Below, piece after piece: positions 8,186 through 27,436 of a stretch of DNA of 64,000 nucleotides. The notes beneath the pieces were generated by a model, which ran no database searches, was not told the origin of the DNA, and saw only the letters and a program-made list of their open reading frames with translations. This DNA comes from a virus (taxonomy: Duplodnaviria > Heunggongvirae > Uroviricota > Caudoviricetes), in IMG/VR virus record IMGVR_UViG_3300037484_000445, positions 1-64,000 of that record; one strand, given 5' to 3'. Each line of letters begins with the position of its first letter. The stretch's first letter is position 1. Both the position numbers and the translations under genes were made by a program.

Positions 8186-8259
8186 TGTAGAGTATGCAAA
8201 TTTGGTAAGCAGCGCCGCTGTTAACGGCGTGACTGGGGGTTCGATTCCCTTCTCTACAG
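8186..8259 (+). tRNA. tRNA-Asn(GTT)
   Basis: cloverleaf, CT GTT AA. Confidence 0.88.
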
Positions 8260-8263
8260 CTAT

Positions 8264-8342
8264 TCCAGGGTAGCCTAGTGGTAAGGCACTCGGCTGTTAA
8301 CCGAGCGTGAAAACATCGCGGGTTCGAATCCTGCCCCTGGAG
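8264..8342 (+). tRNA. tRNA-Asn(GTT) with enlarged variable region
   Basis: cloverleaf, CT GTT AA, 12-nt variable loop. Confidence 0.9.
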
Positions 8343-8686: not shown

Positions 8687-8848
8687 AGGGCACCCCCTAC
8701 GTGAAGCATACAAGCCTTTGTTGGTTCGACTCCAACCTTCCCCACTAGGACTTAGGTCCGATCTACGGGGAAGTCGCTCAATGGTAGAGCAGCGGAAATT
8801 GAAAATCCGTCTCGAAAGAGATTCTCCGCTTTACAACTCGGGTGCCCT
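8687..8848 (+). ncRNA. circularly permuted tRNA-like RNA with conserved module (element A)
   Basis: AGGGCACCC/GGGTGCCCT end stem; GTGAAGC/GCTTTAC; ATACAAGC; T arm, closed acceptor CTTCCCC/GGGGAAG, D arm, anticodon arm in that order. Confidence 0.85.
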
Positions 8849-8933: not shown

Positions 8934-9071
8934 GGGGAACATGAGGCACGGCGCCTCGCCAGACGGTTAATCTGGATGCCAAAAGCATCACTGCCTAGTT
9001 TCTCGGCTCTGCAAGGAGCCTCTCTACTTGGCCTACAAGCACACTTGGTTCGACTCCAAGGTTCCCCGCCA
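8934..9071 (+). ncRNA. tRNA-ended RNA with conserved module inserted in the variable loop (element F)
   Basis: acceptor GGGGAAC/GTTCCCC+GCCA, D arm, CCAGA-CGGTTAA-TCTGG arm, GCAA-capped module, CTACAAGCA, T arm. Confidence 0.8.
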
Positions 9072-11993: not shown

Positions 11994-12150
11994 GAGTACC
12001 CCCTACGATAGATCAAACAAGCATTTGTGGGTTCGAGTCCCGCCTCCTGCTCTAGGGTGAAAGCCCAACATGCAGGAGTAGCCGAATGGTAAAGGCAATG
12101 GTTATCCAAACCGTGATTAGCATCACATCGATCTAGCAACTCGGGTACTC
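11994..12150 (+). ncRNA. circularly permuted tRNA-like RNA (element C)
   Basis: GAGTACCC/GGGTACTC; TAGATC/GATCTA; AAACAAGCA; T arm, CTCCTGC/GCAGGAG closed by a hairpin, D arm, anticodon arm (TA TCC AA). Confidence 0.87.
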
Positions 12151-12422: not shown

Positions 12423-12544
12423 GAGGCATCCCATCAGAAAGTACATACACGCATTGTCTAACGGTAGGACAATACCCTTCCAAGGTATCCATACGGGTTC
12501 AAATCCTGTTGCTAAAAACGTCGTACTTTCATCTCGGATGCTTC
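12423..12544 (+). ncRNA. module enclosing a normal-order tRNA-Gly(TCC)-like body (element G)
   Basis: GAGGCATCC/GGATGCTTC; GAAAGTAC/GTACTTTC; ATACACGCA; D, anticodon (CT TCC AA) and T arms; acceptor reduced to about 3 bp. Confidence 0.8.
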
Positions 12545-15947: not shown

Positions 15948-16034
15948 GGAAGACAAATCCGTTAGGTACGGACGCGGTTTTGAAAACCGATGGGTCCCGT
16001 GAAAGGGACTGGGTTTCGAGTACTCTGTCTTCCG
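15948..16034 (+). tRNA. tRNA-Ser(TGA), 8/4 fold
   Basis: GGAAGACA/TGTCTTCC, TT TGA AA, variable arm. Confidence 0.85.
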
Positions 16035-16037
16035 CTA

Positions 16038-16451
16038 ATGGCCAACGTGAATCAGAAGGGTGTTATAGGTTTGGTTAAGGTGACCGCGGATCTTGTAACA
16101 CGTGGATTCGAAGTATTCACACCGATCTCTGATGCATGTCCTGTAGACCTTATTGCTGCTAATGATGCAATGACACTTCGCAGGATTCAGGTTAAGTATA
16201 GAGAACCTTCTGCTAGAGATCATGTGCTTTTTGTGTCTTTGGACTCTGTGGTTAACGGGAGACGTGTTCCTATAAACTTGAGCCTGTTGGACGGTTGGGC
16301 AATTTATTGTCCTCAGACAGAGAAGGTTTATTACGTCCGTCGGGATGCTGTTAGTCTACGTAGTATACGGTTGTGCTTACAGGATTCCAGACAAAGAAGA
16401 CAAGGTCGTTTAGCTACGGACTTTATGGATCCAGCGAGCCTATGGTTTTGA
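16038..16451 (+). CDS. PD-(D/E)XK endonuclease (homing-endonuclease-like)
   Basis: KGVIG..V..DL..RGFEVF.P..PVDLIA..RIQVKY. Confidence 0.85.
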   Translation: MANVNQKGVIGLVKVTADLVTRGFEVFTPISDACPVDLIAANDAMTLRRIQVKYREPSARDHVLFVSLDSVVNGRRVPINLSLLDGWAIYCPQTEKVYYVRRDAVSLRSIRLCLQDSRQRRQGRLATDFMDPASLWF

Positions 16452-16564: not shown

Positions 16565-17026
16565 ATGAACGTTCTCGAGGCTTTTCAGGAGCTCTGGTCC
16601 AAAGTCAACGTCCCTGGGTGCAGTTGCCCGGACATCGAAATTGGCCAATTACGAGAACTCATGGCTGAGATTTTTCTCAAGGATCTCAGCCCCACGGATA
16701 ATGAGTACGACACGCTTGTTTGGTTAAGTCCTCTCGAGAAGTACATCTGGGCGTATGTCAAGATAGCTCCTGGCAGCACCGCGGAAATAGCCCTCTCTTG
16801 GTTCGAAAAGCATATTGCCAAACCTACTCCTCTGGCGCCAAATGATGAGTGGTCCGAAGAGTATGAAGATGCTTTAAGACAGCACTACGAGAAGGACGAG
16901 GCTGAGAGAAGGGCTTTCGCCAAGACATTCACAGAGGCTGAAAGCCACTTAGTTACTTTGAAGCTCATAGCCCAGCCGCCTGCTGAAGAATTGGGGGAGC
17001 TTCGAGCTCTTGAATTTGAATCGTGA
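16565..17026 (+). CDS. hypothetical protein
   Basis: ATG 9 nt after GGTGTA. Confidence 0.7.
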   Translation: MNVLEAFQELWSKVNVPGCSCPDIEIGQLRELMAEIFLKDLSPTDNEYDTLVWLSPLEKYIWAYVKIAPGSTAEIALSWFEKHIAKPTPLAPNDEWSEEYEDALRQHYEKDEAERRAFAKTFTEAESHLVTLKLIAQPPAEELGELRALEFES

Positions 17027-17028
17027 AT

Positions 17029-17100
17029 GTCCCTATGGTCCAAAGGATGGGCACGAGCCTCCGAAGCTCGTTTATGCTGGTTCGAGTCCAGCTAGGGACG
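17029..17100 (+). tRNA. tRNA-Arg(CCG)
   Basis: cloverleaf, CT CCG AA. Confidence 0.93.
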
Positions 17101-17101
17101 C

Positions 17102-17186
17102 CGCAGGTACCGAGAGACGGTCATCTTACCGGGCTCATAACCCGGCGCCCTAGGCGAAGAGGGTTCAATTCCCCCACCTGCAACCA
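17102..17186 (+). tRNA. initiator-like tRNA-Met(CAT) with a long variable arm
   Basis: C1:A72, CCGGG/CCCGG, CT CAT AA, CGCC-CTA-GGCG arm, ACCA. Confidence 0.75.
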
Positions 17187-17188
17187 AT

Positions 17189-17453
17189 GGCTTCGAGGCC
17201 GAAAGGAAAGGCACAGTCAAACGGAAACTGCTCCTCGAGAAGAGGGCTTAGTGGAGTAGGATCTGCACACGTTGACAGGGTGCTGCTCGGGTCAACCTCT
17301 ACAGATTCGAATTGGTTGAGGATTTGCGGATGCACCGGGCTGTGCCTCAACTGGTAACGGTTGGGGGTGGGCGGGAGTCGCCACAGCAGGGAAGCGCGTT
17401 TACCTCATCTCTTTGCACTTAGCATGCGGGTTCGAATCCCGTCGAAGCCGCCA
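17189..17453 (+). ncRNA. 265-nt RNA with tRNA ends and a large structured insert
   Basis: GGCTTCG/CGAAGCC+GCCA, D arm, T arm GCGGG-TTCGAAT-CCCGT, about 190 nt of hairpins between them. Confidence 0.72.
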
Positions 17454-17454
17454 T

Positions 17455-17529
17455 ATTGGAAACGCTCGTCGGCCGAGCAAGGTCTTCATAAGGCCTCGTT
17501 AGTGGGTTCGACTCCCACTTCCAATACCA
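17455..17529 (+). tRNA. tRNA-Met/Ile2(CAT)
   Basis: ATTGGAA/TTCCAAT, TT CAT AA, ACCA. Confidence 0.85.
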
Positions 17530-17592
17530 CCAAAAACACTACATCTCGCTCATCAATGAAGGTGAGCTATCCGTGGTGTATGGGAGGCTTAA

Positions 17593-19479
17593 ATGCCAAA
17601 TGTAGAGAACCTAGGGCCTGCTGAGCGAATCATCAACTCACTACTGACTTACACGGATCACCTTTTTCATGGGCGTCCGGGTATCGTTACGCCGGACACC
17701 ACACTGGCGACAGGTGCCAAGTGGCAGTTTGCCACCTATGTCGAGAATGCCGGCGTCAAGACGGTCTATGCTCTTCGTGAGAAGGGTCCAGTGACAAAGG
17801 TCGAGATTGCTGAGGGTAAGTCCTTGAAGATCAAGGGCACGGCTTTTGGTGTCCTCGACGCCGACGGCATCACCATCAAGGATCCTCGTGGCCGAAAGAT
17901 TGGTGAGTATCGTTCACCTGGCATCTTCAAGGAAGTTGCTACTTGGATGTTCCGTCAGGTCGCTGAGATCTGGAAGTTGGACAACGAGTTTGCTGCTCGT
18001 TGGGCATCTCACGCCTATGCTGAGGATCATCGAGACCTCAAGGTTATTCTGGCTTCGTTCATGCTGGTTCAGACCCGTAAGGGTGACCCCGTATTGGATG
18101 GGGGTAAGGTAGCTTTCCTTGATGAGGACTACCGTGATGTTGGCGAAGCCATGATCTTGCAGAATGGGGCTAAGTACCTGGATCTAAAGATGATCCTTAG
18201 GATTCTGGGGGTGCTAGAGCTTCCTGAGGTTGCGGCGATCGTGCGAGAGCTTGGATTTGGTAACTCGGCACGTAGTAAGTTCTTGGGCCGGTTCCCGAAG
18301 GTTGCTGAGAAGTGGCTTCGGTATCGAGAAGAGAACCCTCAGTTGCTGAAGGGCTTGATTAAGAGCGGTCAAAGGAGCTCGTTGAAGAGACTGGCTACAA
18401 CCGTTCGATACAAGCCGACCACGCCGAAGTTCTTCAAGGATTTGCGTTGGAAGCAGGTCCAGGCCAAGGACGGTCACCGTGGGCTTGCCATTGGCGAGGC
18501 TGTGAGTGCCGCCGAGACTTGGGCGGATCTACGTGAAGAGCAAATCTGCGAGAGGATTGTTCAGTCCAAGATGAACTTCAAGAGGATTGTTGGCCTTTTG
18601 CCGGAAGCTGTCGGACTTTCTCGTGCTGTTATGGCAGCTGCGATCGAGGCTGGTTCACTTTCGGATAAGGACTTGATCCTTTACACGCCGACGCTGGAAG
18701 AGCTTGGTCTGCTCAAGGTTCCAGCTATTCACGGGAAGTGGCAGTTGGCTCTTAAGGCTGCCGAAGACCAGAGGGCTGCTAACGTAGCTACTCGAGTCAA
18801 GGGCAAGGAAACCAAGGAACTACTGCAGGGTGCCGCAGACACGGCTATGCAAAAGGCTGTGGAAGAGGTAATCCGAGGTATGAGGGTCTACTTCATCGTA
18901 GACATCTCGGGCTCGATGGAAAACGCCATTGAGCAGGCCAAGGTCAACATCACCAAGTTCTTGCCGGGTTTCCCGCTCGACAAGATCCACGTTTCGGTCT
19001 TCAATACCTCCGGTCGGGAGATCGCCCTCAAGCATGCTACGGCGGCTGGGGTCGAGAATGCCTTCCGTGGTATCAAGGCCAGCGGTGGAACTAGCTACGG
19101 TGCAGGTGTCATGGCTCTCCATACACACAAGCCTAAGGCTGAAGAAGACGCCCTGTTCTTCTTCATTGGTGACGAGGAGGCCACCCCCTTTGCTCAGGAT
19201 GTAAGGATGTCGGGTATCAATCCGGTAGCCTTCGCTTTCATCAAGGTAAGGGTTAATGGCTACTCTGCTGTTAGGGATACGGCCCAGGCTCTGGGGATCC
19301 CTTGCATCATGGTGGACCAGAACACCTTTGAAGACCCGTATGCTATCCCTCGGACTATTCGCAACTTAATTGCGGCAACTCCTGTGGGACGTGCTCCGGC
19401 CAGGATCCAGCAGCGTGAAACGTTGGTAGACGTGATCCTTAAGACGCCTCTACTGACGAAGCCGGCTTGGGCGGCATAA
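17593..19479 (+). CDS. Ro60/TROVE-like helical protein with C-terminal vWA (MIDAS) domain
   Basis: VDISGSM, GGTSY, IGDEE MIDAS motifs; basic helical N-terminal 400 aa; vWA is firm, TROVE is inferred from architecture and RNA context. Confidence 0.65.
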   Translation: MPNVENLGPAERIINSLLTYTDHLFHGRPGIVTPDTTLATGAKWQFATYVENAGVKTVYALREKGPVTKVEIAEGKSLKIKGTAFGVLDADGITIKDPRGRKIGEYRSPGIFKEVATWMFRQVAEIWKLDNEFAARWASHAYAEDHRDLKVILASFMLVQTRKGDPVLDGGKVAFLDEDYRDVGEAMILQNGAKYLDLKMILRILGVLELPEVAAIVRELGFGNSARSKFLGRFPKVAEKWLRYREENPQLLKGLIKSGQRSSLKRLATTVRYKPTTPKFFKDLRWKQVQAKDGHRGLAIGEAVSAAETWADLREEQICERIVQSKMNFKRIVGLLPEAVGLSRAVMAAAIEAGSLSDKDLILYTPTLEELGLLKVPAIHGKWQLALKAAEDQRAANVATRVKGKETKELLQGAADTAMQKAVEEVIRGMRVYFIVDISGSMENAIEQAKVNITKFLPGFPLDKIHVSVFNTSGREIALKHATAAGVENAFRGIKASGGTSYGAGVMALHTHKPKAEEDALFFFIGDEEATPFAQDVRMSGINPVAFAFIKVRVNGYSAVRDTAQALGIPCIMVDQNTFEDPYAIPRTIRNLIAATPVGRAPARIQQRETLVDVILKTPLLTKPAWAA

Positions 19480-19556
19480 ATCGAAGTTTGAGGGGTCGGT
19501 TGCGTAAAACGTGACCGACCCTTTGCTTCATTACTTTTTAGGTGTATATACACCAC

Positions 19557-20513
19557 ATGTCTTGGCGCGATCTACTCCAGGCGGTTGATGAAACCCTGAG
19601 CTACCCGTGGACGGGTGGACGGACCCTTAGGGGATCCGATGATAGGCGCTTGACCGTTGAGGGCCGACTTCCTAGGGAGTATGGTTGGTGTACTTTCAAG
19701 GTTTTAGGACGTAAGGCTCGCTATACGTCTCCTGCGGAGCCTCAGCCTTTGGGATTCAAAGTTTTGGGTTACCTTGTGGGAGACCGCTTCATTTCGGATG
19801 GTGTTCGTGTTGACCCGGATCCCCAGACCATTGCTACCTTTTCTGAGCCGGTCCACATCTTGGAGGACGGTCTCGATCGATTCGTTAGAATATCCGCTGG
19901 CCGGATCTTTGACGACGGACCCCTGATCTACGATGCTCTGGAGATGCCTTTGGGGCCCGAGGAAGCGGTCCTGGAAGCCTTCTTGGACCAGAAACCATCC
20001 GTAAGCCACATTCCTGGCGTTGTACCGGCTCTAGACGCTGCTTTCAGGCTGGAGACCTATCAGAGAGTCGAGGCCGAGAGACGCCGCCTAGAAGAGGAAC
20101 GTAGGCTTCGGGAAGAGGGAGAGGCCCGGCAGAGAGAAGAGCGTCGCCAGGAGCTGATCAAGCAACTGGGAGACGGCCGAGGGCGAAGGGCTCTGGCTGC
20201 CCAAGACTTTGGCACTGCGGCACGGGCGGCTTTGGCCATTGGCGGGGCCGAGTATCTGGATCACCGTCGCTCTGTCAATCGTGGTGAAATGGTCGTCAGG
20301 TTTAGGCTCAATCACCGTCGGTTCGAGTGCGTTTGTGCTGAAAGGACCCTTGCCATCATTGACTCGGGAATCTGTCTCACGGCTCACTACGATGATCCGA
20401 ACTTTACCGGCGGTACGAAAGGAGACGGCTGGTTCACCTTGGAAAGTCTACCTTCGGTAATTCTCGAGGCAGAGAGGCTAGGCCGCTTGGTGGTGTATAG
20501 ACACGTGGACTAG
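19557..20513 (+). CDS. putative E2-like (UBC-fold) conjugating enzyme with central coiled coil
   Basis: IIDSGICL (cf. E2 G.ICL catalytic Cys) followed by WFTLESLPSVI; next to JAB/Ubl/E1. Confidence 0.6.
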   Translation: MSWRDLLQAVDETLSYPWTGGRTLRGSDDRRLTVEGRLPREYGWCTFKVLGRKARYTSPAEPQPLGFKVLGYLVGDRFISDGVRVDPDPQTIATFSEPVHILEDGLDRFVRISAGRIFDDGPLIYDALEMPLGPEEAVLEAFLDQKPSVSHIPGVVPALDAAFRLETYQRVEAERRRLEEERRLREEGEARQREERRQELIKQLGDGRGRRALAAQDFGTAARAALAIGGAEYLDHRRSVNRGEMVVRFRLNHRRFECVCAERTLAIIDSGICLTAHYDDPNFTGGTKGDGWFTLESLPSVILEAERLGRLVVYRHVD

Positions 20514-20521
20514 GAGACCCT

Positions 20522-20911
20522 ATGCAAGAAGCCGGTGTGTTGGTAGACTTTCGAGGCAACCCGATTTATTGGCATCTGCCAGCAAATCGGGGAACGATAG
20601 TTTTGCCCGATAGTCGAGATCTTTGGAAAGCCTTCGAGGAAAAACGTGACAGGGTTTATGGGTACGCCCATAGTCATCCTGGATCCGGGATGCCCGCGGC
20701 TTCAGCCGAAGATATCACGAGCTTTTCTGCAATTGAGAGAGGCCTTGGGCGTCGACTAGTCTGGTGGATTGCTACGGCCACAGACGTCAAACACTACTTG
20801 TGGCGAGGCCCTGACGAGTACCTTTATCGGGGTTACGCAGACACTATGGTTCCTCATGGCTTTGCTTGGTTGGATGAGCTTAGGAACCTTTCACACTACG
20901 ATGGGAGATGA
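20522..20911 (+). CDS. JAB/MPN (JAMM) metalloprotease, deubiquitinase-like
   Basis: N-terminal EAGVL, HSHPGSGMPAASAED (HxH-x7-S-x2-D). Confidence 0.9.
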   Translation: MQEAGVLVDFRGNPIYWHLPANRGTIVLPDSRDLWKAFEEKRDRVYGYAHSHPGSGMPAASAEDITSFSAIERGLGRRLVWWIATATDVKHYLWRGPDEYLYRGYADTMVPHGFAWLDELRNLSHYDGR

Positions 20912-21168
20912 ATATGGAAGACTTTGAAGCACGGGTAAACGTTACATACATGGGCGCCAACGGAGATCTTCCGGACCCTGTGAAGTACGACGCCACGGAT
21001 GCCGAGATCCTTGGTTGGGTAACGGAAGCCATTCGTACTGGCGGTGTCCCTGGTATTCCGGAAGACGCTAACGCCAACCTGACGGATTTCGTTGTCGATC
21101 GGTTTGGTCCTAGCGAACCGACTCCGTACAACCGCCTGATGGTGCGTCCCAAGACGCCCTTCGGTTGA
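20908..21168 (+). CDS. ubiquitin-like (beta-grasp) protein
   Basis: 86 aa, ends RPKTPFG with a C-terminal Gly; lies between JAB and E1. Confidence 0.75.
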   Translation: MNMEDFEARVNVTYMGANGDLPDPVKYDATDAEILGWVTEAIRTGGVPGIPEDANANLTDFVVDRFGPSEPTPYNRLMVRPKTPFG

Positions 21169-21186
21169 ACACCTTGCGAGGGTACC

Positions 21187-21762
21187 ATGGCCTTGATTAC
21201 AATTGTTGGTGTAGGAGCTCTTGGGTCACACGTGGCTCAATTCCTCCGAAACGCGGAAGCTGAGATCAAAGTCATCGACTTCGATCGTATTGAGACCAAG
21301 AACACGAAGTCTCAATTTCATAGCTCGCCCAACGTGGGCAAGCTCAAGGCGCCCTCGCTTCAGCAGACCTTGAACTTCTTGTTCAAGACGAAAATCACAG
21401 TGGTTTCTCACAAGCTGGTTGATGACAACGTCAATCAGCTTTTGGGTGGATCCAACCTCGTGATCGACTGCTTGGATAACGGTACAGCTCGGAGATTGGT
21501 CCAAACATTCTCTCGTGCTCAAGGAATCCCGTGCTTGCACGGGGCTTTGGCTGCGGATGGAGCTTTTGGTCAAGTTCTCTGGACTGAGCACTTTCGAATC
21601 GACGATGAGGTGGGTGCGGGGGCGGCGACCTGCGAAGATGGAGCTCATCTTCCGTTCATCGCCTTGGTCTCCAGCCTCATGGCACAGTCAGCTCAGACGT
21701 TCCTGCGAAGCGGGAAGAAGTTGAATTTTCAAATACATCCGACGGGCGTAATCTCCGTCTGA
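21187..21762 (+). CDS. E1-like ThiF/MoeB adenylyltransferase
   Basis: VGVGALGS, IDFDRIETKN, DCLDN..R, ATCED (candidate catalytic Cys). Confidence 0.92.
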   Translation: MALITIVGVGALGSHVAQFLRNAEAEIKVIDFDRIETKNTKSQFHSSPNVGKLKAPSLQQTLNFLFKTKITVVSHKLVDDNVNQLLGGSNLVIDCLDNGTARRLVQTFSRAQGIPCLHGALAADGAFGQVLWTEHFRIDDEVGAGAATCEDGAHLPFIALVSSLMAQSAQTFLRSGKKLNFQIHPTGVISV

Positions 21763-27072: not shown

Positions 27073-27432
27073 GGGCTCGACAGGTTTCGACGTGGTGAAC
27101 AAGGAATATATCGATCATGCAAGGGCGCTCGCCCCTTCAACGAGCCGTAATAACTGCAAACGACAACAGCATTGCTGACCGCCTCGTAGCGTAAGCCATT
27201 ACCCCAGTAGATCGTCCTAGTATCTGGGGAGTGAAACCAAGACCAGGGCTGGGTTTCCGGGATTGCCTAACCACCGGGTATCGAGATTGAAGAAAGGCTT
27301 TGGACAGACAAGATTCTGTCAAAACCCTAGGCGAAAGCCCACGGTCAAATAGGGTCATCGTAGTGGGCTAAGCATGTGAACAAGGTACTTCTAGAAGCGC
27401 TGCGGACCCCGGTTCAATTCCGGGCGGGTCCA
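27073..27432 (+). ncRNA. ssrA: tmRNA; tag (A)ANDNSIADRLVA at 27156-27194
   Basis: GGGCTCGACAGGTTTCGAC 5' end, G3:U70, TAACT-GCA resume context, T arm and CGGGTCCA 3' end. Confidence 0.95.
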
Positions 27433-27436
27433 CTAA

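Follow-up and report, generated by a model that had tools for sequence, protein, structure and literature searches.

The DNA analysed here (hereafter the window) is a stretch of 64,000 nucleotides (nt) that forms the first 64 kilobases (kb) of a 452-kb IMG/VR phage record (IMGVR_UViG_3300037484_000445), in which ARAGORN finds 48 transfer RNAs (tRNAs) and one transfer-messenger RNA (tmRNA). Positions 17189–17453 of the window hold a 265-nt element located in a tRNA island, between a tRNA-like gene (17103–17182) that ends 6 nt before its start and a tRNA-Met gene (17455–17529) that begins 1 nt past its 3′ end. An earlier note, made from the sequence alone, had described this element as a giant RNA with tRNA ends, and the acceptor stem, the G-CCA end, the D arm and the T arm are all found in the sequence. 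Here we report that 17189–17453 is a genuine gene for a tRNA-shaped RNA of a widespread, undescribed family. The structure of the window copy is paired in 79.5% of cells in nine long-form relatives, compared with 62% in shuffles, and 39 of its base pairs change on both sides in the long-form alignment, a count that is equalled by 0 of 500 shuffles and that no slid register comes close to. Because homologs show compensatory changes and the shuffles fall short, the element goes beyond chance.

ARAGORN makes no call over the 265-nt RNA, RF00005 does not match it, and an Rfam 15 scan of positions 17000–17650 (E ≤ 10) yielded nothing beyond the flanking tRNAs and 15 nt of the T arm, matched by a tmRNA model. 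A single-sequence fold of the RNA is modestly better than shuffles (z = −2.2).

Structure of the 265-nt RNA

The structure counts come from a MAFFT alignment of the nine long-form relatives, with 500 shuffles and slid-register controls. The anticodon-position stem, a small GNRA hairpin and the closing helix of the variable arm are out of register in the MAFFT columns, and covary when read sequence by sequence. The gene and its parts are listed below, with percentages referring to alignment cells paired.

17189–17453, + strand: whole tRNA-shaped RNA gene, 265 nt, CCA encoded (from sequence, full-length homologs and structure counts)
17189–17195, + strand: acceptor 5′ strand GGCTTCG, pairing with CGAAGCC at 17443–17449 in a perfect 7-base-pair (bp) stem; 100%; 6 of 7 pairs change on both sides
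17198–17212, + strand: D arm, GCCG / GG-bearing loop / AGGC; 92%; relatives have U8, A9 and a 4-bp stem
17214–17230, + strand: anticodon-position hairpin CAGT/ACTG with the 9-nt loop CAAACGGAA, neither U33 nor a 7-nt loop; stem covaries sequence by sequence
17219–17223, + strand: lock loop AAACG, proposed pseudoknot with CGTTT at 17397–17401; 100%; one pair is CG in 10 sequences, UG in 1 and UA in 1
17233–17245, + strand: small hairpin CCTC-GAGAA-GAGG; relatives have a GNRA tetraloop (CCTC-GCAA-GAGG, CCCC-GTAA-GGGG, CTC-GAAA-GAG)
17259–17308, + strand: lineage-specific hairpin, GGATCTG/CAGATTC, internal loop CACAC/CTCTA, GTTGAC/GTCAAC and the 14-nt loop AGGGTGCTGCTCGG
17314–17321, + strand: closing helix of the variable arm, 5′ strand GGTTGAGG, pairing with CCTCATCT at 17403–17410; the homologous helix covaries
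17324–17335, + strand: conserved block 1, TTGCGGATGCAC, 5′ strand of a large internal loop; identical in 53 of 89 members, the others differing at 1–3 positions
17339–17344, + strand: inner junction helix, 5′ strand GCTGTG, pairing with CACAGC at 17382–17387; 93%; 6 of 6 pairs change on both sides
17345–17366, + strand: hairpin CCTCAAC/GTTGGGG with the conserved loop TGGTAAC(G); 90.5%; 5 of 7 pairs change on both sides
17371–17381, + strand: short, weak hairpin GCG-GGAGT-CGC; 67%; relatives have GGC...GCC in the same place
17389–17401, + strand: conserved block 2, GGGAAGCGCGTTT, 3′ strand of the large internal loop, containing the lock partner CGTTT; near-invariant family-wide (part of block 2 had served as a search pattern)
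17426–17442, + strand: T arm GCGGG-TTCGAAT-CCCGT; 100%

The discriminator base is G17450, followed by CCA at 17451–17453. The earlier note had placed about 190 nt of hairpins between the D and T arms; these extra bases exist, but they form a degenerate anticodon-position hairpin and a huge variable-arm domain. The anticodon-position stem appears as CAGT/ACTG, CGGCG/CGCTG or ATCG/CGGT, and the 9-nt CAAACGGAA stands where a decoding tRNA has a 7-nt anticodon loop with U33. The closing helix takes forms such as GGTCTC/GAGACC, GTCGAG/CTCGGC, GGTGGG/CCCACC and GCCAGG/CCTGGC, and is at least 5 bp long in 87 of 89 members, with 71 distinct helices. To this shared core the window lineage has added three extra hairpins. 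The lineage-specific hairpin at 17259–17308 had been proposed in the note as a double helix (GATCTG/CAGATT with GTTGAC/GTCAAC) and is confirmed by covariation: 75% of cells are paired in its outer helix and 98% in its inner helix, 12 of 13 pairs change on both sides, and the loops are fixed, although the pattern is restricted to a few long-form relatives.

Other parts of that first description did not survive the comparison. The CTGCTCC/GGAGTAG hairpin is no different from shuffles or slid controls, and neither is GGTTGAGG/CCTCAACT from its controls; instead, GGTTGAGG pairs with CCTCATCT, and CCTCAAC with GTTGGGG. The TTAGCA ahead of the T arm is not kept in relatives. Two further local hairpins were tried and rejected: a mini-hairpin within block 1 (UGC-GGAU-GCA), ruled out by uncompensated UUAC variants, and GGGAA/UUUCC around block 2, which is not conserved in several members.

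The note had also raised a conformational switch, in which AGGCACAGTC (17209–17218) pairs alternatively with GGCTGTGCCT (17338–17347), so that the D arm would open and the RNA would alternate between a tRNA-like state and a second one. The pairing is a perfect 10 bp in the window and is used by the minimum-free-energy fold, and a 5–8-bp version exists in several long-form relatives (AGGCGA/UCGCCU in locus L143; 7 of 8 pairs in L063). However, these counts only equal those of the shuffled and slid controls, and the pairing arises mostly from the invariant D-stem strand AGGC and a conserved GCC. Its 3′ partner is moreover occupied, as the GCTGTG strand belongs to the junction helix with CACAGC, in which all six pairs covary. 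In L063, where this helix is GCTGTA/TACAGC, a G-to-A change is compensated there by C-to-U and leaves a C·A mismatch in the switch. The region is missing altogether from L064, and short-form members have no equivalent. We therefore regard the switch as very unlikely.

A widespread family with a shared plan

Loci were fetched via the neighbouring Ro-like protein, after which nhmmer gave full-length homologs and their conserved loops gave two search patterns; a third pattern, block 1 alone, brought in further variants. The pattern search in bacterial genomes returned at least 120 matches, and 82 of the matches listed were confirmed by nhmmer. After de-duplication the sample comprised 26 phage and at least 66 bacterial distinct sequences of 155–330 nt, the 5′ end being doubtful in some of the longest. 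A covariance model of the full-length RNA was abandoned because ordinary tRNAs scored as high as true members, and nhmmer profiles and motif patterns were used instead. Among the nhmmer homologs, L062 is the same phage from another metagenome, whereas L063 and L064 are more distant, L064 being identical to L013.

All members share one plan, in which a 7-bp acceptor stem and a D arm are followed by an anticodon-position hairpin, a variable-arm domain and a T arm. The anticodon-position hairpin has a stem of 4–6 bp and a loop of 8–11 nt with AAAAC(G) and no U33, and the A-rich AAAC motif occupies this position in 85 of 91 members. As judged from the loop size, the absence of U33 and the A-rich motif, the RNA would be one that does not decode. 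The variable-arm domain runs from the closing helix through block 1 (UUGCGGAUGCAC), a junction helix with 0–3 hairpins and block 2 (GGGAAGCGCGUUU) to the closing 3′ strand. Lying between the closing and junction helices, blocks 1 and 2 thus make up the opposite strands of a single large internal loop, which is conserved. In the window copy, the arms are in tRNA order with an open end, the A-rich loop is complementary to block 2, and the blocks face each other between two covarying helices. A second optional module, found between the anticodon-position hairpin and block 1 in L159, L205, L230, L273, L267 and others, consists of CUGCUAC, a hairpin and GGUGUGGG, and is not in the window copy.

These features bear on whether a group I intron, or an intron of another kind, could be splitting a normal tRNA gene. 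Bacterial tRNA genes are known to harbour group I introns, and about 190 extra bases do lie inside a tRNA frame here. Yet the scan gave no group I match at E ≤ 10, and the extra bases sit 3′ of an intact anticodon-position hairpin. Because the insert is in the variable region, its excision would leave the loop CAAACGGAA in place of an anticodon loop. This insert core and loop, moreover, recur on 58 different acceptor scaffolds, and the shortest insert in the family is still about 75 nt. We give the intron explanation next to no weight.

The family is widespread, unannotated and not in Rfam. It occurs in jumbo phages and in cultured phages of Streptomyces, and among Cyanobacteria, Actinobacteria, Deinococcus, Myxococcota and others it is found in mobile tRNA arrays or on chromosomes, with one copy per record. 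ARAGORN calls none of the phage copies, no Rfam family covers any of ten representative members at its gathering score, and a search of the literature found no description of the tRNA-shaped RNA family. In BLAST searches, the short form matched 13 cultured Streptomyces phage records in which the RNA is unannotated, such as Alone3 (OR725492.1, 8135–8278) and LuckySocke (OR725497.1, 7780–7918); the LuckySocke record places gene 22, a hypothetical protein and probably a miscall, over the RNA. The window element itself gave no match in GenBank phages and only T-arm matches in the three closest Ro-bearing phage records, and an exact pattern of its 32-nt 3′ end gave no match in viral contigs.

Among the matches listed, 48 of the 82 bacterial copies have co-oriented tRNAs inside 3 kb. 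Microcoleus and related cyanobacteria (L248, L242, L193, L201 and some 15 further Microcoleus loci) carry a 259-nt form with the loop AAAAACU in place of AAAACG, and copies of this type sit inside co-oriented arrays, with up to 25 tRNA genes within 3 kb on either side.

Proposed pairing of the anticodon-position loop with block 2

The A-rich loop at the anticodon position is complementary to block 2, and the two would form a lock between the anticodon and variable arms. In 70 of 91 members, the anticodon-position region can form 5–6 contiguous Watson–Crick pairs with block 2, compared with 25 of 91 in a reversed control. Covariation within the lock is rare because both partner strands are nearly invariant, and three variants carry it: AAAUG/CGUUU (U·G) in L166, AAAUGC/GCAUUU (U–A) in L314 and AACUG/CGGUU (A–U to C–G) in L316. 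Several members lack a rival local hairpin, GG..CC around block 2, which counts for the lock. Pairing of the AAACG loop with the CGUUU of block 2, with compensatory changes in three relatives, is thus well supported by the sequences but not proven. A sixth lock pair, between the fourth A and the base after UUU, showed no covariation and was dropped.

The Ro60-like neighbour

The next open reading frame (ORF) on the same strand starts 140 nt downstream of the RNA and encodes a candidate protein partner.

17593–19479, + strand: Ro60-like protein of 628 amino acids, with a helical ring part and a vWA domain with a metal-ion-dependent adhesion site (MIDAS), from the predicted fold

Pfam gives this protein a weak VWA_2 match alone, and a sequence search of the PDB gave no match. 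An AlphaFold2 model built with 33 homologs has a predicted local distance difference test score (pLDDT) of 83 and a predicted template modelling score (pTM) of 0.50. The top ten Foldseek matches to the model are Ro60, Rsr, TROVE and the Ro60 of Thermus phage phiLo, over about 530 columns and with E values from 1e-9 to 2e-6; the TM-scores are low (0.2–0.3), and the domain arrangement is therefore uncertain. The predicted fold of the neighbour thus matches Ro60 best.

The RNA lies on the same strand as a Ro-type gene and within 5 kb of it at no fewer than ten loci. For the protein type of the window the distance is 0.14 kb in the window, 2.1 kb in L063, 0.9 kb in L064 and 1.6 kb in L164, and for the Pfam TROVE type it is 0.3 kb in L149 and about 0.07 kb in each of L178 and L148. 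In bacteria, the RNA sits beside a Pfam-confirmed Ro60 at L270 (30 nt), L281 (0.4 kb) and L286 (1.3 kb), and L270 and L286 have no tRNAs nearby. In Streptomyces phage Alone3, a gene annotated as a Ro-like RNA-binding protein follows 2.9 kb downstream of the RNA. The extra CACAC/CUCUA hairpin is present in 4 of 4 copies that adjoin the protein type of the window. ORF clustering around the 82 bacterial copies (among the matches listed) found lineage-specific neighbours, none of them universal, and in Streptomyces and Deinococcus the neighbours searched with Pfam were unrelated housekeeping genes or had no match.

The earlier note had set the RNA just upstream of a Ro-like gene. That holds in the window, where the fold of the neighbour resembles Ro60, but the arrangement is constant in neither the RNA family nor the protein family. 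From gene neighbourhoods, the link to Ro60 appears to be real yet facultative, with Ro60-type proteins as a recurrent optional partner.

Comparison with known RNAs

The closest known functional relatives are the YrlA Y RNAs, although three of their defining features fail here. Like the present RNA, YrlA is a non-coding RNA (ncRNA) that mimics tRNA and has D-arm and T-arm features, and it is sometimes co-transcribed with tRNAs (PMC4201824). In bacteria and phages, the genes for both often share a strand with a Ro60-type gene and lie no more than a few kb from it. The window copy, at 140 nt, falls well inside the same-strand distance of about 4 kb or less, a proximity that is not general in its family. 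By contrast, YrlA is circularly permuted, with a T arm, a closed acceptor-like stem-loop and a D arm, and the RNA ends form the Ro-binding stem, whereas the 265-nt RNA has the normal tRNA order, an open acceptor and CCA. The motif GNCGAAN0-1G (CGAA) is absent beyond the T loop, the nearest sequence being UUCGAAUUG at 17306–17314; in the family, the version ACCGAAUGG is confined to some short forms, and we therefore rejected the CGAA motif as a family feature. RF02553 does not match the 265-nt RNA (E ≤ 10, 17000–17650), YrlA has nothing equivalent to the lock or to the blocks UUGCGGAUGCAC and GGGAAGCGCGUUU, and most carriers of the RNA have no Ro60.

Sub-threshold matches to the YrlA model occur elsewhere in the window, at 8701–8818 (29 bits, E 5e-5), 12025–12096 and 8229–8289. 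Other phages with the RNA family have YrlA-like matches of 40–62 bits (such as G014:C1:109479-109612 and G023:C1:6847-6977), frequently within the same islands of tRNA genes. Phages in which the RNA lies near a Ro-type gene also have sub-threshold YrlA-like RNAs next to such genes.

tmRNA resembles the 265-nt RNA in having tRNA-like ends around a large structured insert, no anticodon decoding and a place in phage tRNA clusters, and many relatives of the RNA carry the G3:U70 pair with A73. A second tmRNA, or a tmRNA derivative, was weighed as an alternative: L143 and L144 have the acceptor GGGGCUG/CAGCUCC with G3:U70 that is typical of tmRNA, and a UAA occurs within the conserved GGUAAC loop. 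We nevertheless consider it extremely improbable. The match to the tmRNA model is limited to the 15-nt T-arm piece and ARAGORN is silent; in L144 a shift breaks the frame that would end at the UAA of the loop, and L064 has lost this region by deletion. The RNA family shows no tag frame or covariance-model match, its D arm is complete, it possesses an anticodon-position hairpin, and it measures 155–270 nt in this comparison. It also coexists with true tmRNA, which lies at 27073–27433 in the window, and in Streptomyces phage Comrade the tRNA-shaped RNA occurs together with an annotated tmRNA. The absence of a tmRNA tag frame and of a group I core, noticed at the outset, is borne out by the scan of 17000–17650, which returned neither an intron nor a full tmRNA match (E ≤ 10), and by the broken frame in relatives.

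Class II tRNAs (tRNA-Ser, -Leu, -Tyr and -Sec) likewise have extra sequence at the variable-arm position of an otherwise normal cloverleaf. Their variable arm is 10–20 nt long, whereas that of the RNA family is 75–190 nt and has a conserved internal loop, and an invariant A-rich loop of 8–11 nt replaces the anticodon loop.

Nine tRNA-chimeric RNAs of the window share a tRNA island and a nearby Ro-like gene with the 265-nt RNA, and have modules of helix, internal loop and helix on tRNA scaffolds. The earlier note had read the CTCTA loop strand of the 265-nt RNA as an echo of this nine-member family. CUCUA does recur in some of the nine (for example, in 8934–9071), but the strand that is invariant there, ending in CUC, is CACAC in 5 of 6 long-form copies of the present RNA and CACAU in L164. 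The 265-nt RNA is also missing the ACAAGC motif before the T arm, and the nine have neither the A-rich loop nor blocks 1 and 2. A match to RF00005 at 12451–12512 (42 bits, model positions 5–66), with no ARAGORN call, falls within one of them.

Acceptor identity

At position 3:70 of the acceptor stem, a G on the 5′ side is paired with U in 13 of 58 distinct acceptor types, compared with 0–2 at each other stem position. All 13 have G1–C72 and G2–C71, and 11 of the 13 have A73; they include L143, L144, L149, L161, L174, L166, L265, L248, L313, L318 and L319. G3:U70 with A73 is the alanine identity set recognized by alanyl-tRNA synthetase (AlaRS) in tRNA-Ala and tmRNA. The window copy has C3–G70 and G73 and is therefore without this set. 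The alanine identity signature in an RNA that is apparently unable to decode suggests that part of the family may be charged.

On this basis, the family could consist of chargeable non-decoding RNAs, possibly alanylated by AlaRS, in which the variable-arm domain sequesters the loop at the anticodon position; we find this a doubtful proposition. Alanine would then be delivered outside normal decoding, either by a tagless, tmRNA-like rescue RNA or by a donor for non-ribosomal transfer; alternatively, the RNA might signal its charging status to a bound protein, for example Ro60. Alanine identity would have been changed or lost in the window lineage, which has G73, C3–G70 and encoded CCA.

Processing and proposed function

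Taken together, we hold with moderate confidence that the 265-nt RNA is a stable, non-decoding, tRNA-shaped ncRNA of a widespread family that serves as a scaffold, and for which the Ro60-like protein is the best candidate partner in this phage. RNase P and the 3′ tRNA-processing enzymes would cut the RNA out of the tRNA-array transcript. Such tRNA-type maturation is supported by the RNA abutting its neighbours in a co-oriented tRNA array, and YrlA of Mycobacterium smegmatis has a 7-bp acceptor-like stem, is cleaved by RNase P and receives CCA (PMC4201824). The RNA would then fold into a tRNA-like L shape, with the AAACG–CGUUU pairing zipping the variable arm against the anticodon arm; so locked, it would be unable to decode, and the resulting rigid body could act as a scaffold for protein binding. 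In this phage, the Ro60-like vWA protein may be its partner, with the RNA working in the manner of a Y RNA whose tRNA acceptor end stays free. That protein may be contacted through the lineage-specific hairpin, with its CACAC/CUCUA internal loop and AGGGYG..GCUCGG loop, as an adaptor, and Ro60 would be an occasional, non-obligatory partner across the family.

Several observations weigh against this reading. The lock draws on three variant sequences, and 82 of 500 shuffles equal its 100% of cells paired, which is why we grade it as well supported and unproven; the search patterns had also fixed part of block 2. As for the partner, of 50 phage records that encode this Ro-like protein, 5 contain the RNA pattern, and among 16 complete records with the protein only one, this phage itself, has the RNA. 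Conversely, 3 of 28 RNA-bearing phage records have this Ro-like protein and 7–9 of 29 have a Pfam TROVE protein. TROVE is present in 13 of 50 RNA-bearing bacterial genomes (among the matches listed), in 11 of the 13 on another contig. In Deinococcus, the RNA is found in 10 of 61 species, and TROVE is about equally frequent with the RNA (6 of 9) and without it (6 of 13); in 5 of the 6 carriers that have TROVE, the two are non-adjacent. The published Ro-binding motif GNCGAAN0-1G is missing from the window copy, and adjacency in phages may merely reflect Ro genes sitting inside tRNA islands.

Much of this evidence would fit a function of the same RNA that is independent of Ro60 and directed at tRNAs or the translation machinery, with the RNA acting as an aminoacyl carrier, a tagless rescue RNA, or a decoy or sponge for an enzyme or defence nuclease. 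A decoyed enzyme would recognize the tRNA elbow and the acceptor end, and the Ro60 adjacency would be a by-product of shared tRNA islands. Most carriers have no Ro-type gene nearby or anywhere, and the lack of any other conserved protein neighbour fits a universal partner in trans. The AlaRS identity set in 13 of 58 acceptor types (with A73 in 11 of the 13), the open acceptor end and the CCA encoded in some members point the same way, as does the position of the RNA in Comrade, near genes for an RNA ligase and a polynucleotide kinase. However, the window copy lacks alanine identity (C3–G70, G73), acceptor identity varies across the family, and the RNA lies directly beside Ro60 in unrelated bacteria that have no tRNA arrays (L270 and L286), which is hard to explain by chance. 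We regard a Ro60-independent function as possible, if unlikely.

If confirmed, the finding would widen tRNA mimicry beyond Y RNAs and tmRNA, to an RNA that keeps the cloverleaf order and a free acceptor end and whose decoding is blocked by an intramolecular lock, and would add a large structured RNA class overlooked by standard annotation, ARAGORN and Rfam being silent on it. The Streptomyces phages Alone3 and Comrade of the SEA-PHAGES programme, together with Deinococcus and Streptomyces strains, offer tractable systems for studying the role of Ro60-type proteins in phage infection and for asking whether non-decoding tRNA-shaped RNAs are aminoacylated.

Neighbouring genes

The 80-nt gene immediately upstream of the RNA (17103–17182) is called tRNA-Met(cat) by ARAGORN and is an atypical tRNA: it is sub-threshold for the general tRNA model, and its best Rfam match is tRNA-Sec at 28 bits, under the cut-off of that model. 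Further upstream, between tRNA-Ser genes inside the tRNA island, positions 15990–16451 encode a PD-(D/E)XK endonuclease of 153 amino acids (PF11645, E 3e-18). Downstream of the Ro-like gene, 19542–21762 holds an ORF of 323 amino acids with no Pfam match, one of 129 amino acids with a weak Prok-JAB match (E 2.7e-4), one of 86 amino acids, and one of 191 amino acids that is ThiF/E1-like (E 1e-23).

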